From the sequence record NC_048186.1: a stretch of 64,000 nt of DNA. One strand, 5' to 3'. This DNA comes from Escherichia phage vB_EcoM_KWBSE43-6. The position numbers and the translations under genes were made by a program. The notes beneath the pieces were generated by a model. It saw only the letters and a list, made by a program, of their open reading frames with translations, made no database searches and was not told where the DNA came from. Positions 20,568-26,485 of the stretch are shown here, in pieces (position 1 is the stretch's first letter; each line of letters begins with the position of its first letter).

Positions 20568-21254
20568 ATGTCTAATATGTCGGAACGTTTGTTACAGACC
20601 TTAGATGCTGTCTCAGCACGAGATGAGGTTGCTCAAGATGCGATGAAGAAAACCGCATTGAAGCCCGGTGTTGATTATGATGAAGAAACGGGGGAGTGGT
20701 TAGGTGATCCCCCGGAAGGGTATCAAGGATTCGAGATGCCACCATCATTGTCTGAAGTCGCATCAAAAGAATCAAAAGTTCCTGAATACGAGGACACTGA
20801 CGCCACGACTGACTACAAACGTATTCGTGACACCACATATGCTATGCAAGAAGCCACGATGTTCATGATGGGCAAGGCCGCTGAACTCGCCGCTTCTACA
20901 GAGGCTCCTCGTGCATTCAGCGTCTTCCGCGAGCTGGGTGAACTCATGCGTGGTCTCAATAAAGACTTGATGGAAAACCAGAAAACCATCAAGGATGTTA
21001 CTCGCGACAAAGAACCGCCGGGACAGACCACCGTTGAGGTTTCTGAAGATGAAAATGGAACGACTACAGTCAAAGTCGGTAAGACTGCTCGTTCGTCCAG
21101 AGATCTTCTCCAGATGATTGAGAAAGTTCGACGTGATGCCGAAGCCAATCGAAATTCTCGCGTCAACCCCGATGAAGAAGTAATTGACGTCGCGGAAGAA
21201 CCAAAACAGGAAGATAAGTCAGAGGGCGAGGACAATGGCGTATCCGAAGCGTGA
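20568..21254 (+). CDS. gp16: terminase small subunit gp16
   Basis: ATG 20568; central region MFMMGKAAELAASTEAPRAFSVFRELGELMRGLNKDLMENQKTIKDVT resembles T4 gp16; directly upstream of large terminase. Confidence 0.75.
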   Translation: MSNMSERLLQTLDAVSARDEVAQDAMKKTALKPGVDYDEETGEWLGDPPEGYQGFEMPPSLSEVASKESKVPEYEDTDATTDYKRIRDTTYAMQEATMFMMGKAAELAASTEAPRAFSVFRELGELMRGLNKDLMENQKTIKDVTRDKEPPGQTTVEVSEDENGTTTVKVGKTARSSRDLLQMIEKVRRDAEANRNSRVNPDEEVIDVAEEPKQEDKSEGEDNGVSEA

Positions 21255-23445
21255 AGTCGAATATGCCCCGGTCAAGACGGGGTTTAAAATTGAAGACGTC
21301 AAATTGCGTATGGACCAAACGTTCATGCGCAAGCCGACTGTGCGTGCTCCTCGTGTTGAATTAGTCCTTACTGATGAGCAAGAAGATGAATATGTCAAGT
21401 GTGCCATGGACGCACACTATTTCGCTGCGAACTATTACAAGATCACCACTATCGACCACGGCTTCATCTTGTTCGATATGCATGATTATCAGAAGCAATT
21501 GTTCCATGATTTCCAGGATCATCGATTCAATGCTGTCGTACAGGCTCGTCAGTCTGGTAAATGTGTTCGGGGCGACTCTGAAGTTTATGTTTACGATACT
21601 CTCAGCCAGGAAGAGTTCTCTATCACCATAGAGGAGCTTCACAGCCGCTTCGAGGACGTTAACCATGCAGAGCCGTTGAATACCATTGGCAAACACAATA
21701 AGTTCGTAGATAGCCGCTTCGGCAAACGATACTTTGTGAAGTCTGATAGTGGTTGGGTTCCTGTAATAGCAGCACACAAGACAAAAGAATATGCAGAATA
21801 TGTGGTAAAAACTGAAAGTGGTCGGACGATTCATGTCGCGGACGAACATCTATTCTTTAATGAATATAATAGTGAGGTTTTCGCCAAAGATCTGGAAGCC
21901 GGGGATGCCATCATGACGCAAGATGGCCTTGAATGTATTTCTGAAATTTGGGAAACCGGCGAATCTCACCACATGTTTGACCTCCAGGTGAAATCATCTG
22001 AGCAGCGTTATTACACCAATGGGTTCCTGAGCCATAATACGACAGTGGTGGCGGCATTTCTCCTCTGGTACGCGATGTTCAACTCTGACAAAGAGATCGC
22101 GGTTCTTGCGAACAAAGAGAAACAGGCTATTGAAATCCTGGATCGTATTCGTAAAGCATATCAGGACATGCCATTCTTCGTCCAGCAAGGTTGTGAGAAA
22201 TTTGGTTCAACCCTGATTGAATTCGAGAACGGTTCGAAGATCTTTGCATACGCGACTTCCTCGGACTCCATCCGTGGTCGTTCTGTATCTCTCCTGTATG
22301 TGGACGAAGTCGCATTCATCGAAAACGACTTTGAATTCTGGGAATCAACTTTCCCGGCGATCGCCCAGGCAGAGACTTCGAAGTGTATCCTCACCAGTAC
22401 ACCAAAAGGTCAGCGCGGGCTGTTTTACGACATCGTCACGAAGGCGAACCCAGAACATCCTCAATACAACGACTTCAATCTTACGGAAGTTCCTTGGTAC
22501 AGGGTTCCGGCGTACACCAAAGACCCGAATTGGGAATCCAAACAACGTGCCAAACTTGGCGACGCTCGTTTCGATCAGGAATTCGGTATCAAGTTCCGTG
22601 GTTCTGTCGGTTCATTAATACCGTCGAAATGTCTGGACAAGATGACATCCAAGTTGTATCAGGAGCCGAATGAGTTCACCAAAATCTACAAACCCTTTGA
22701 CAAAACCAGAACATATTTTGGTATTGCGGATACAGGCAAAGGGGTTGAGGGGGACTACTCTGTGCTGACCATATTGGACATCACGGAATATCCTCATACG
22801 ATTGCAGCCAAATACCGGAACAACACGATACCGCCGATGATGTATGCATACACGATTGCCGATATGTGTACTCAATACGGTGAATGCCCTGTGCTTGTAG
22901 AGACCAACAATGATGTTGGTGGCCAGGTGATCACAATCCTGTATCAAGAAATTGAATATCCGGAAATCGTGTTTACATCAACGGACAATAAGGGTACTGG
23001 TAAGAAGATCGGCGGTCGTCGTCCTGAACCAGGGATCAACACCAACAAGAAAGTTCGCTCTATCGGTTGTGCTAACCTGAAAGCACTTATCGAAAGAGAG
23101 ATGTTGGTAATCGAAGACCAGGATACGATTGATGAACTGAGTACGTTCGTGTTTACTGGGACCCGCTATGAGGCCGATCAGGGTTGTCATGACGACTGCG
23201 TTATGCCACTTGTTTTATATTCATGGGCTGTAAAACAGGAATGGTTCAGTGATTTAACTGATACCAGCATTTCTCGAGATATGCGCGGTCGTATGAATGC
23301 GATGGAGCAACACCAAGTCCTCCCGTTTGGGGGCAAATTTACTGGTGATACCCCTCATGAAGTACAGCATATGCCGGGCTTTGGGGGTGTGAATGTATTT
23401 GATGAACGTTCTGGGATGTCAATGGAAGAGTGGTTCAAGAACTGA
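21235..23445 (+). CDS. gp17: terminase large subunit gp17, intein-containing precursor
   Basis: ATG 21235; extein sequence reconstitutes Walker A QARQSGK-TTVVAAFLL (T4: SRQLGKTTVVAIF); downstream ATPase and nuclease regions match T4 gp17. Confidence 0.9.
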   Translation: MAYPKREVEYAPVKTGFKIEDVKLRMDQTFMRKPTVRAPRVELVLTDEQEDEYVKCAMDAHYFAANYYKITTIDHGFILFDMHDYQKQLFHDFQDHRFNAVVQARQSGKCVRGDSEVYVYDTLSQEEFSITIEELHSRFEDVNHAEPLNTIGKHNKFVDSRFGKRYFVKSDSGWVPVIAAHKTKEYAEYVVKTESGRTIHVADEHLFFNEYNSEVFAKDLEAGDAIMTQDGLECISEIWETGESHHMFDLQVKSSEQRYYTNGFLSHNTTVVAAFLLWYAMFNSDKEIAVLANKEKQAIEILDRIRKAYQDMPFFVQQGCEKFGSTLIEFENGSKIFAYATSSDSIRGRSVSLLYVDEVAFIENDFEFWESTFPAIAQAETSKCILTSTPKGQRGLFYDIVTKANPEHPQYNDFNLTEVPWYRVPAYTKDPNWESKQRAKLGDARFDQEFGIKFRGSVGSLIPSKCLDKMTSKLYQEPNEFTKIYKPFDKTRTYFGIADTGKGVEGDYSVLTILDITEYPHTIAAKYRNNTIPPMMYAYTIADMCTQYGECPVLVETNNDVGGQVITILYQEIEYPEIVFTSTDNKGTGKKIGGRRPEPGINTNKKVRSIGCANLKALIEREMLVIEDQDTIDELSTFVFTGTRYEADQGCHDDCVMPLVLYSWAVKQEWFSDLTDTSISRDMRGRMNAMEQHQVLPFGGKFTGDTPHEVQHMPGFGGVNVFDERSGMSMEEWFKN
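21562..22038 (+). mobile_element. mini-intein (159 aa) inserted in terminase Walker A P-loop
   Basis: Begins Cys (TGT 21562), ends His-Asn (AAT 22036-22038), +1 residue Thr; block A CVRGDSEVYV and block F/G FDLQV...NGFLSHN recognisable; no homing endonuclease domain. Confidence 0.8.
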
Positions 23446-23448
23446 TCA

Positions 23449-23455
23449 CTAAATA
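23449..23455 (+). promoter_or_regulatory. late-promoter-like box CTAAATA
   Basis: CACTAAATATC 43 nt upstream of ATG 23498. Confidence 0.4.
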
Positions 23456-23497
23456 TCTTTCAAATTGAGCGAAACTCTACCGAGAAGGAATAATATT

Positions 23498-25393
23498 ATG
23501 GCAACTACAAGCTTCAGCGTTGCGCCGTCTGTACAGTGGACCGAGCGCGATGCCACGCTTCAGACATCTCCGTCCGTTGTTGTTCAGGGCGCGTCTGCTG
23601 GTAAATTCCAATGGGGTGAAGTAGAATTGCCCGTGTTGGTTACTAGCGGTGAGACTGGTCTGGTGAAGAAATTCTTCAAACCGAATGATGATACTGCAAT
23701 CGACTTTCTGGTCATCGCTGACTTTTTGTCGTACAGTTCTGCTGCATGGGTGACCCGTATCGTCGGCCCTACTGCCAAGAACGCCGTGACTAAAGGTCAG
23801 AGCGCTATCCTCATCAAAAACAAACTGGACTTTGAGACCGCAAGTCCTTCGGCTTCTATCACGTGGACTGGTCGTTATCCCGGTTCCCTGGGCAACGATA
23901 TTGCCGTTAACATCTGTGATGCAGCGTCATTCCCAACCTGGGAATTCCGTAACAACTTCGCCTATGCTCCTCAGGCTGGTGAATTCCACGTTGTTGTTGT
24001 GGATAAAGTTGGCCGTATCACCGATTCTTCCGGCGCTGTCGGTCAGGTTGATCGTATTTCTATTTCTGGTACTGCTACCGCCGCTGGCGCCATCACAGTA
24101 GCAGGTGAATCTGTTGCGTACCTGCAGACGGATACCCCAGCAACTCTGGCGGCTAAAATCGGCCTGGAGATGGAAGCACTGACTGATGTTTATTCGAGCG
24201 TTGTTGTGAAATCGAATACCGTCATTCTGACCCACAAAGCTATCGGCCCGCAGCCTGTTACCACCGTGGTTCCTGATGCCAATGGTCTGACTGGGACTGC
24301 GATCATCACCACTGTTGGCGCATCCGGTACGATCATTGAGAAATATGAACTGATGCAGAATACCCAGGGTTCTAAAAAATCCGACGGCGCGAACGCATAT
24401 TTCAAAGATGTTATCAACAATACTTCGAATTGGGTTTACACCTTCACTAATGCCCTGGCGGCAGGTGTAGTTGAACTCGAAGGTGGTGTTGATGATTACG
24501 ACGTCAACCGTGTCGCTGCTATCGAAGCCCTGAACAACGCCGAAGCATACGATGCCAAACCTGTGTTTGCATACTGCGAAGAGCTGATTGAACAGCAGGC
24601 GATCATCGATCTGTCGACTAACCGTAAAGACACAGTGTCCTTCGTGTCGCCGCTGCGTGATGTTGTAGTCGGCAACCGTGGTCGTGAAATGGATGATGTT
24701 GTGGCTTGGCGTGAAAGCCTGGTGCGCGATTCTTCCTATTTCTTTATGGATGACAACTGGGCATACGTTTACGACAAGTACAACGACAAAATGCGCTGGA
24801 TCCCGGCGTGTGGTGGTACTGCAGGTCTGTGGGCGCGTACTATTGAGATTGCTGGTATCTATAAGTCCCCGGCGTTCCATAACCGTGGCAAATACAACAA
24901 CTACAATCGTATGGCATGGTCCGCGTCTTCTGATGAACGTGCTGTGCTGTATCGCAACCAGATCAACAGCATCGTCACCTTCTCCACAGAAGGCATCGTG
25001 CTGTACGGTGATAAGACTGGCCTGACCCGCCCGTCAGCGTTCGATCGCATTAACGTGCGCGGCCTGTTCATCATGGCTGAACAAAACATCGCTGCCATCG
25101 CCAAATACTATCTTGGTGAAAACAACGATGCGTTCACTCGCAGCCTGTTTAGCAACGCCGTTCGTCCTTATATTCGCCAGCTGGCCAACATGGGCGCGAT
25201 TTATGACGGTAAAGTGAAGTGCGACGAAGACAATAACCCGGCTGAAGTTATTGCTGCCAACCAGATGGTTGCTGGTATCTGGCTGAAACCAGAATACAGC
25301 ATTAACTGGATTTATTTGGATTTTGCTGCCGTTCGTCCGGACATGGAATTCTCGGAAATCGAATCCGGCGGCGGTATTGTCGCAGCGTCATAA
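23498..25393 (+). CDS. gp18: tail sheath protein gp18
   Basis: ATG 23498; GKFQWG motif and overall similarity to T4 gp18. Confidence 0.9.
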   Translation: MATTSFSVAPSVQWTERDATLQTSPSVVVQGASAGKFQWGEVELPVLVTSGETGLVKKFFKPNDDTAIDFLVIADFLSYSSAAWVTRIVGPTAKNAVTKGQSAILIKNKLDFETASPSASITWTGRYPGSLGNDIAVNICDAASFPTWEFRNNFAYAPQAGEFHVVVVDKVGRITDSSGAVGQVDRISISGTATAAGAITVAGESVAYLQTDTPATLAAKIGLEMEALTDVYSSVVVKSNTVILTHKAIGPQPVTTVVPDANGLTGTAIITTVGASGTIIEKYELMQNTQGSKKSDGANAYFKDVINNTSNWVYTFTNALAAGVVELEGGVDDYDVNRVAAIEALNNAEAYDAKPVFAYCEELIEQQAIIDLSTNRKDTVSFVSPLRDVVVGNRGREMDDVVAWRESLVRDSSYFFMDDNWAYVYDKYNDKMRWIPACGGTAGLWARTIEIAGIYKSPAFHNRGKYNNYNRMAWSASSDERAVLYRNQINSIVTFSTEGIVLYGDKTGLTRPSAFDRINVRGLFIMAEQNIAAIAKYYLGENNDAFTRSLFSNAVRPYIRQLANMGAIYDGKVKCDEDNNPAEVIAANQMVAGIWLKPEYSINWIYLDFAAVRPDMEFSEIESGGGIVAAS

Positions 25394-25399
25394 GACACC

Positions 25400-25423
25400 A
25401 AACCCCGCTTCGGCGGGGTTTTA
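25400..25423 (+). terminator. rho-independent terminator
   Basis: AAACCCCGC ttcg GCGGGGTTT. Confidence 0.6.
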
Positions 25424-25461
25424 CTTCGGGGTAAATAATATCGGCAACCCGGAGATTTGAA

Positions 25462-25917
25462 ATGATATTTGCATACAAAATTGAAATGATATCTAACAAC
25501 AAGGTCTACATCGGTGTGACCAATGATCCGCAAAGGCGATATGAGCAACATTTGGCCAATGCATTTCAATATAATGTTGAAAGTGAATTGTATGATGCCA
25601 TGCGCAAATATGGGGCTTCCGCTTTTACTTTCGTGATTATTGCTCAAACCGATGAAGTCCACAAATGGGAATTGGAAAAGCAATTAATTGCTCAATACGA
25701 TTCTTATGAATTGGGCTACAACATGAATAAAGGCGGTAACGATGGAAGTCATCTGGTTGGTAAAGCTGCTGCTAAATTGACCTCCACTGGAGAACATATT
25801 GGTATGGTCTCATTAATTGATCCACGTTGGGATCTCTGTGAGATTGAACCAGTACGGAACAATGTTGATCATGGCTTTGATCTCAGTAAATTGACGATCA
25901 AAAGATTAACAGACTAA
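25462..25917 (+). CDS. GIY-YIG endonuclease (free-standing homing endonuclease-like), 151 aa
   Basis: YKIEMISNNKVYIGVTNDPQRRYEQH aligns with I-TevI GIY-YIG catalytic core; conserved R, E and N (GYNMNKGG) present; inserted between sheath and tube genes. Confidence 0.8.
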   Translation: MIFAYKIEMISNNKVYIGVTNDPQRRYEQHLANAFQYNVESELYDAMRKYGASAFTFVIIAQTDEVHKWELEKQLIAQYDSYELGYNMNKGGNDGSHLVGKAAAKLTSTGEHIGMVSLIDPRWDLCEIEPVRNNVDHGFDLSKLTIKRLTD

Positions 25918-25951
25918 TTAGAATTGTGTAACTCTTTTTGGAGAATGTATA

Positions 25952-26485
25952 ATGGCTACAGTAAATGAATTTCGCGCGGCCATGTCACGTGGGGGCGGCG
26001 TTCAACGTCAGCACCGCTGGCGTGTGACTGTAAACTTCCCGGCATTCGTAGCGGGTTCTGACACCATTCGTGACGTATCTCTGTTGGCTGTAACAACCAA
26101 CACCCCGACAGGCCAGCTGGGTGAGATTCTCGTTCCGTGGGGTGGCCGTGAACTGCCGTTCCCTGGCGACCGTCGTTTTGAGGCTCTGCCTGTAACGTTT
26201 ATCAACGTTGTGGACAACGCCCCGTACAACGCATTTGAAATCTGGCAGCAGTATATCAACGGCAGCAACAACAACCGTGCGTCTGCTAACGCAGATGATT
26301 ATTTCCGTGACATCATCATGGAACTGCTGGATGCTAACGACAACGTCACCAAGACCTGGACGCTGCAGGGCGGCTGGCCTCAGAACCTCGGTCAGCTGGA
26401 ACTGGATATGTCTGCTATGGACTCCTATACTCAGTTCACTGTTGACCTGCGTTACTTCCAGGCCATTTCGGACAAGTCTCTCTAA
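25952..26485 (+). CDS. gp19: tail tube protein gp19
   Basis: C-terminus WTLQGGWPQNLGQLELDMSAMDSYTQFTVDLRYF matches T4 gp19 as remembered. Confidence 0.85.
   Translation: MATVNEFRAAMSRGGGVQRQHRWRVTVNFPAFVAGSDTIRDVSLLAVTTNTPTGQLGEILVPWGGRELPFPGDRRFEALPVTFINVVDNAPYNAFEIWQQYINGSNNNRASANADDYFRDIIMELLDANDNVTKTWTLQGGWPQNLGQLELDMSAMDSYTQFTVDLRYFQAISDKSL

Follow-up and report, generated by a model that had tools for sequence, protein, structure and literature searches.

In the genome of Escherichia phage vB_EcoM_KWBSE43-6 (sequence record NC_048186.1), of which a stretch of 64,000 nucleotides (nt), referred to here as the window, was analyzed, the spacer between the tail sheath and tail tube genes holds a gene for a GIY-YIG endonuclease of 151 amino acids (aa). 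This gene is named S, whereas the spacer (25394-25951, 558 bp) is the whole interval. The existence and annotation of S are already known, the gene being present in well over a hundred public phage genomes, and the new part is modest, consisting of evidence that S is a truncated, immobile and selectively retained derivative within a populated homing hot spot. It is best explained, with an even chance in our estimation, as an ancient truncated derivative of a homing endonuclease that has become immobile and is retained as a nuclease acting in trans on the sheath-tube junction of co-infecting relatives. The gene and the parts of its product, with scores from the predicted local distance difference test (pLDDT) and with reference to a helix-turn-helix (HTH) domain of relatives, are as follows.

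25462..25917, + strand: S, apparently truncated GIY-YIG endonuclease gene (151 aa, ATG start), recognized from its open reading frame (ORF), Pfam and PHROG matches, selection and a structural model
25462..25752, + strand: predicted GIY-YIG catalytic domain, I-TevI-like, aa 1-97 of S
25759..25851, + strand: linker module, termed the DPRW module, aa 100-130 of S (GKAAAKLTSTGEHIGMVSLIDPRWDLCEIE)
25852..25914, + strand: C-terminal tail of S, aa 131-151, pLDDT 38-56, at which full-length relatives run on into an HTH-like domain

According to the ORF list, S is the single convincing gene in the spacer. Its product matches the Pfam family GIY-YIG (PF01541, E=2e-9) over aa 3-81 and, over its full length, PHROG 5123, 'homing endonuclease with GIY-YIG motif' (E=2e-88). 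Residues Y5, Y16, R26, H30, E72 and N87 align to I-TevI residues Y6, Y17, R27, H31, E75 and N90, and hence all of the Tyr, Tyr, Arg, His, Glu and Asn positions of the I-TevI-like branch of the GIY-YIG superfamily are present; these catalytic residues show no variation in orthologues down to 57% identity. The structure of S was modeled with AlphaFold2 (AF2) from a 50-sequence alignment (pLDDT 85.7, a 6-sequence alignment having given 52 and been discarded), and its fold is far closer to I-TevI than to endonuclease II (EndoII) of phage T4. The initial annotation of this stretch, made from the letters alone, had described a 151-aa ORF with a complete GIY-YIG core, and the Pfam, PHROG and I-TevI comparisons bear it out; its own Shine-Dalgarno sequence and its location after the sheath terminator were likewise correctly called (GGAG at 25451-25454, hairpin at 25400-25421). 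The lack of a DNA-binding extension also holds, in that an HTH-like domain of ~85 aa is absent, although a conserved linker module of ~30 aa is still there. The same annotation had placed the gene between the gp18 and gp19 genes, which are adjacent in T4; sheath and tube genes were indeed found on either side, but the T4 frame does not apply, as the phage is a Taipeivirus-like member of the Ackermannviridae and not T4 or a close relative of it.

Three types of related full-length GIY-YIG genes occupy the same spacer in other Ackermannviridae, namely S-full (230 aa, in place of S), L (231-248 aa) and R (262-264 aa, on the reverse strand). All three products carry the ~85-aa HTH-like C-terminal domain, recognized by weak HTH matches, and S ends before it; past aa 81 no Pfam match was obtained in S, and the C-terminal DNA-binding region expected of a free-standing homing endonuclease of the Seg or F-Lim type is missing. 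S is 37-43% identical to L proteins (over aa 5-147 of the latter) and 53-57% identical to S-full over the first ~145 residues, and S-full (P0008, E=6e-52) was its nearest relative among 1.84 billion cluster representatives in an exhaustive profile search. The full-length relatives were reached by exhaustive profile and alignment-seeded searches, a single-sequence word-index search having returned six clusters, all of Ackermannviridae. Because S groups with S-full, L and R, all of which carry the domain, the parsimonious reading of these sequences is that S lost it. The gap relative to S-full is the same in the S genes of Taipeivirus, Kuttervirus and Miltonvirus, which points to a single old truncation event. 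The C-terminal string L(I/N)RIV followed by the stop, shared by Miltonvirus S and full-length genes, was considered as proof of an internal deletion and then withdrawn, since these codons are read from the spacer sequence CTAA(T/A)TAGAATTGT(G/A)TAA, which is present in the empty site.

Comparison of alleles shows S to have been inherited vertically with its flanks since before the split of Taipeivirus, Kuttervirus and Miltonvirus, because its alleles follow genus and its synonymous divergence (dS) matches that of the flanking genes. All S copies with at least 95% aa identity are in Klebsiella phages, those of Salmonella and E. coli phages being 80-90% identical, and no S allele common to different genera was found among ~200 records. 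Between Taipeivirus and Kuttervirus, dS is 1.53 for S versus 1.28 and 1.22 for the two flanks, and between Taipeivirus and Serratia phage IME250 it is 0.59 versus 0.87 and 1.12. S-full provides a positive control for horizontal mobility: it is 98.6% identical at the nt level between Menlow (Klebsiella phage, Taipeivirus) and BRM 13314 (Salmonella phage, Kuttervirus), whose sheath and tube genes are 81.5% and 82.5% identical, respectively. The stretch of near identity begins at the terminator and reaches a few tens of nt into the tube gene, and to judge from these identities S-full (2134-2950 of the Menlow locus, 2135-2950 of the BRM 13314 locus) represents a clear case of recent inter-genus transfer into the sheath-tube spacer.

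Homing endonucleases move through this spacer, as indicated by the cross-genus identity of S-full together with two features of the sheath gene 3' end, where a recombination zone was delimited.

25250..25393, + strand: recombination zone, the last ~100-150 nt of the sheath gene, with a drop in identity linked to endonuclease gain or loss

Close relatives that differ in endonuclease content only are 98-100% identical along the sheath gene but 70-87% identical in its last ~100-150 nt. In the last 90 nt identity no longer tracks genus, whereas in the region from -330 to -150 it does. The divergent tracts are read as the probable product of co-conversion of flanking DNA during homing.

The spacer was compared in 25 related loci, in which at least seven occupancy states were distinguished; their compositions and carriers are listed below.

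Empty, 78-bp spacer: Salmonella phage P46FS4, Shigella phages Ag3, MK-13 and Gloob, and Enterobacter phage EspM4VN
S alone: most Kuttervirus, Taipeivirus and Miltonvirus, and Serratia phage IME250
L alone: Limestonevirus XF4 and Agtrevirus CECAV_050
L directly upstream of S: KpS110, rabagast, a Miltonvirus and one metagenomic contig
R alone: SW16-7 and Se-H
R and S: two Kuttervirus loci
S-full replacing S: Klebsiella phages Madison, Menlow and K5lambda5, and Salmonella phages BRM 13314 and SeKF_19
A 100-aa ORF and S: Klebsiella phage Magnus
A 596-aa reverse-strand endonuclease and a 36-aa fragment of an S-full- or L-type C-terminus: Dickeya phage Kamild

All insertions have a common right boundary, CTAATTAGAATTGTGTAAC, which is present in the empty site too. 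Nearly all Kuttervirus, Taipeivirus and Miltonvirus genomes have S, and no simple empty junction was found among Kuttervirus or Taipeivirus records, another GIY-YIG gene being in place where S is missing. Only Aglimvirinae and EspM4VN show empty sites; the genes found in these are of the L, R or Hef type and never S. In Magnus, the additional ORF (locus 2473-2775) has no family match and is flanked by the sheath terminator and by a second terminator that precedes S. In Kamild, the 596-aa putative homing endonuclease is at 551-2341, and the fragment (locus 2501-2608, unannotated) is 92% identical to the S-full-type C-terminus and looks like what is left of a former occupant after a later one overwrote it. 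L-type paralogues were also observed at other loci, for instance beside a head completion gene, and no S paralogue was found elsewhere in the window.

The initial annotation had regarded S as a homing endonuclease insertion spreading into naive relatives, and had proposed comparing the junction for presence and absence; this was done and yielded the 78-bp empty spacer in the five phages named above. Part of that view stands, as S is a free-standing gene of homing ancestry between two conserved genes, at a site that is empty in some relatives and at which homing takes place. The part concerning S itself does not, since its alleles follow genus, its dS (1.4-1.5) is similar to that of the flanks (1.2-1.6) and it has no DNA-binding domain; far from being the invader, S is replaced or joined by full-length genes. 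Presence in all relatives under purifying selection, together with a lack of cleavage activity, had been named as an outcome that would speak against spread, and it was found by half: selection is evident and S occurs in nearly all genomes of the three genera, but not in all relatives. That S is an active, currently mobile homing endonuclease, which cuts the empty junction of naive relatives and copies itself in, is accordingly viewed here as improbable. The complete catalytic core, the family-level presence/absence polymorphism, the low G+C content (0.384 in the S ORF versus 0.508 and 0.539 in the sheath and tube genes, respectively) and an expression arrangement such as would be expected for a free-standing phage endonuclease gene are all in its favor. 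However, the divergence of S keeps pace with that of its flanks and none of its alleles crosses genera, in contrast to S-full (98.6% versus ~82% nt identity), every relative showing signs of mobility holds the HTH-like domain that S lacks, and the only empty sites belong to Aglimvirinae and EspM4VN, lineages that never carry S.

The loci with both L and S raise a further possibility, that S partners or regulates adjoining full-length endonucleases, for example as a second catalytic subunit or a modulator of L. The stop codon of L and the start codon of S overlap (ATGA) in KpS110, rabagast and the metagenomic contig (L003 2750-2753, L004 2767-2770, L023 1092-1095), which suggests translational coupling of the two endonuclease genes and thus speaks for a partnership in L- and S-bearing genomes of Taipeivirus, Kuttervirus and one metagenomic lineage, as does the linker module common to both proteins. 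Most S-bearing genomes, however, have no L, while L occurs without S in Limestonevirus and Agtrevirus, and the Miltonvirus L/S junction is built differently from the ATGA type. Such a partnership is very improbable.

Despite the lack of mobility signs, S is well maintained. The ratio of nonsynonymous to synonymous divergence (dN/dS, Nei-Gojobori) is 0.08-0.12 between genera and 0.19-0.24 within genera, and the catalytic and C-terminal parts are both constrained (0.08-0.14), with values of 0.07-0.15 for L genes. By these estimates, purifying selection on S is as strong as that acting on full-length genes that still move. An intact frame is seen in 244 phage records covering at least 80% of the query, a count made up of ~200 S-type matches plus L-, R- and S-full-type matches. 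The match to SE14 came in two pieces. A functionless remnant of a dead homing endonuclease gene, with its decay still pending, might be suspected from the lost C-terminal domain and the absence of any mobility sign, and the site does harbor clear remnants of such genes, the 36-aa fragment of Dickeya phages being one. Yet decay is not what the S sequences display, as both halves of the protein keep a dN/dS of about 0.1 at a synonymous divergence that reaches saturation (0.08-0.24 over all comparisons), the ORF is intact in nearly all records (244 with all types counted), and the catalytic residues are invariant. This reading is strongly disfavored and has scarcely any credibility left.

For the expression of S, the flanking genes and the elements of the spacer have to be considered.

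23498..25393, + strand: tail sheath gene, gp18 homologue, left flank (Pfam Phage_sheath_1C, PHROG 23)
25400..25426, + strand: intrinsic terminator 3' of the sheath gene, with a 9-bp GC-rich stem, TTCG loop and T-run
25424..25454, + strand: predicted 7-bp stem CTTCGGG / CCCGGAG over the ribosome-binding site (RBS) of S, pairing 25424-25430 with the RBS
25451..25454, + strand: Shine-Dalgarno sequence GGAG of S, 7 nt 5' of the ATG
25914..25921, + strand: CTAATTAG, candidate late-promoter motif of the tube gene and common right boundary of the insertions, overlapping the S stop codon TAA (25915-25917)
25940..25943, + strand: Shine-Dalgarno sequence GGAG of the tube gene
25952..26485, + strand: tail tube gene, gp19 homologue, right flank (PHROG 45, E=5e-56; Pfam Phage_T4_gp19)

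For the sheath gene, the ATG at 23498 fits the 631-aa length of relatives, whereas the ORF listing puts a TTG start at 23465. Its terminator consists of the hairpin AAACCCCGC-TTCG-GCGGGGTTT at 25400-25421, followed by TTTTACTT, and the same element carries a terminator annotation in phages May and Menlow. An Rfam scan gave sub-threshold matches to the terminator hairpin only, and hence no RNA gene underlies the S ORF.

The motif CTAA[AT]TA (often CTAAATAC) occurs in 13 copies on the + strand and three on the - strand of the window, and 10-11 of the + strand copies are located 29-49 nt 5' of the ATG of a long + strand ORF. Their positions include 863, 4175, 7443, 9775, 12680, 23449, 25914, 26521, 29452 and 39551, those at 23449, 25914 and 26521 preceding the sheath, tube and portal genes, respectively. 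It is plausible from this distribution that the motif is a candidate late-promoter element; according to the 2011 paper on CBA120, no late promoter had by then been recognized for the ViI family (PMC3184105). No CTAAATA motif was found upstream of S, where there is a 6/7 match only (GTAAATA at 25434) that is not conserved in Kuttervirus. Transcription of S, which thus lacks a full copy of the motif, probably occurs through read-through of the sheath terminator. The RNA of 25385-25475 folds at -29.4 kcal/mol (z=-2.9), and the predicted stem, of which both arms are kept in IME250, may hold the translation of S low.

The favored reading, that of an immobile nuclease acting in trans on related junctions, can be set out as a series of steps. 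The ancestor of S would have been a full-length free-standing GIY-YIG homing endonuclease in the sheath-tube spacer, of a kind still resident in some relatives. To judge from its conserved residues, S should still encode an active nuclease, which would be made in small amounts late in infection via read-through of the sheath terminator, its RBS perhaps being partly sequestered. It would have been kept because of its trans action on DNA without S, for which the likeliest target would be the junction region of co-infecting relatives with other alleles, and this action would bias inheritance toward its own genome (marker exclusion), while S would not be spreading between lineages at present. That relatives with empty sites are viable speaks against a core function and in favor of a competitive or selfish one.

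Several points weigh against this reading. By analogy with I-TevI, a catalytic domain deprived of its DNA-binding partner domain is poor at both binding and cleavage of DNA, and S may likewise possess no useful site specificity. The nuclease role of S and its family is deduced from sequence comparison. L, R and S-full have all invaded genomes that carry S, and hence S is no shield for the site. Selection for homing or exclusion should also be weak once the gene is almost fixed in its genera. With regard to the estimates of selection, inter-genus dS is near saturation, which leaves dN/dS approximate though firm in direction, and the codon-level analysis took in about a dozen S sequences only. 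Finally, the stem over the RBS is not conserved in Kuttervirus.

S may also have been domesticated after the loss of its HTH-like domain and its mobility, with a phage-level role such as the exclusion of competitors, or as a nuclease using its single DPRW module as an undescribed repeatable DNA-binding unit of phage nucleases; we regard this as a tentative possibility. Domestication for a job unrelated to the junction, which is the foremost rival of the favored reading, such as that of a low-specificity nuclease or nickase acting on host or unmodified DNA in the manner of T4 EndoII, or late DNA processing, seems unlikely. Long retention without mobility and an EndoII-like architecture support such a job; nevertheless, viable relatives have no gene at the site, S-full or R has taken the place of S altogether in some genomes of Kuttervirus and Taipeivirus, S resides in a late structural module and has no candidate late-promoter motif to itself, and its resemblance to I-TevI is much closer than that to EndoII. 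In addition, family members both with and without S are reported to be generalized transducers (PMC4184006), which would make bulk destruction of host DNA unlikely.

The DPRW module conforms to a motif of ~35-40 aa, G-x-AA-x4-TGE-x-(I/L)G-x-V-x3-DPRW-x-TGEI, found in one copy each in S, S-full and L. Many of its residues are invariant, its dN/dS is 0.08-0.10, and it is modeled as a beta-hairpin, a short helix and a strand (pLDDT 86-89); it had no match in Pfam or among solved structures. An exhaustive profile search identified the module in 4-6 tandem copies in the metagenomic proteins P0010, P0011, P0015, P0023 and P0030, where the copies sit downstream of putative nuclease domains and the N-terminal domains give sub-threshold SegE_GIY-YIG matches only. 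The multi-copy repeat was not found in cultured phage genomes, in which only single-copy Ackermannviridae genes were present. Since variable copy number behind different catalytic domains typifies the DNA-binding repeats of homing endonucleases, the module may by analogy be a small DNA-contacting unit and perhaps an undescribed DNA-binding repeat.

The S gene is in itself ordinary, and the useful part lies in its context, with an empty state, at least four endonuclease genes, tandem pairs, decayed fragments and a truncated copy all in one 78-bp spacer. With mobile full-length and immobile truncated versions at one site, the spacer would offer a natural setting in which to ask why homing endonucleases are kept by phages, with the full-length sister gene as a built-in mobility control. 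Under the homing cycle model, an endonuclease gene is expected to decay once it is fixed, and the sequence record assembled here contradicts this. If active, the truncated protein would show in a tractable form how a selfish nuclease can become an asset to the phage, and the linker module would then be a candidate DNA-recognition unit.

As regards its relatives, the region is 97-98.6% identical at the nt level to the Klebsiella Ackermannviridae phi1_175010, 0507-KN2-1, May and UPM 2146 of the genus Taipeivirus. The S protein is 100% identical in May, UPM 2146, HMGUkp5 and others, and about 83% identical in Vi01 and SFP10, with the same sheath-tube position. Public labels of S copies, including those of Vi01, PhiSH19, 0507-KN2-1, May and UPM 2146, read 'GIY-YIG endonuclease' or 'homing endonuclease with GIY-YIG motif'. 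A table published in 2011 lists the orthologue of the Vi01-like phage PhiSH19 as a GIY-YIG endonuclease of 152 aa located between tube and sheath (PMC3220722), and a 2012 paper deals with the numerous homing endonucleases of the related LIMEstone phages (PMC3296691). In the literature searched, no description of S as a truncated, immobile and selectively kept derivative was found, and the S protein is not mentioned in a proteomics paper on Vi01-like phages.

Elsewhere in the window, a mini-intein of 159 aa (21562-22038) was observed within the Walker A motif of the large terminase gene at 21235..23445 (…QARQSGK/CVRGD…FLSHN/TTVVAAF…), with a Pfam Intein_splicing match below threshold (27.9 versus 35.8 bits). 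The Magnus terminase is annotated as an intein-containing precursor, and because relatives have the same length of ~736 aa, the intein appears to be fixed in the family.

Among known systems, I-TevI is an intron-encoded protein of 245 aa with a zinc-finger linker, a minor-groove helix and an HTH. S differs from it in having a different, unclassified linker module of ~30 aa and nothing after it. T4 endonuclease II (DenA) gave a much weaker fold match to S than I-TevI and no sequence-level family match; EndoII is the product of an early gene and functions in host-DNA breakdown, whereas S is located in the late structural module. Characterized Seg enzymes are roughly 200-250 aa in length and possess a C-terminal DNA-binding region. 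By comparison, S has 151 aa, no such region and no mobility signature. The T4 Seg proteins (SegA-G) and LIMEstone F-Lim (PMC3296691) nevertheless resemble S in their GIY-YIG domain, free-standing site, presence/absence pattern and flanking tracts that look co-converted. S-full shares with S the insertion site, the right boundary and the linker module, but adds the HTH-like domain of ~85 aa and inter-genus transfer, and in Menlow and BRM 13314 it has a CTAAATA motif upstream of the gene, which S does not.
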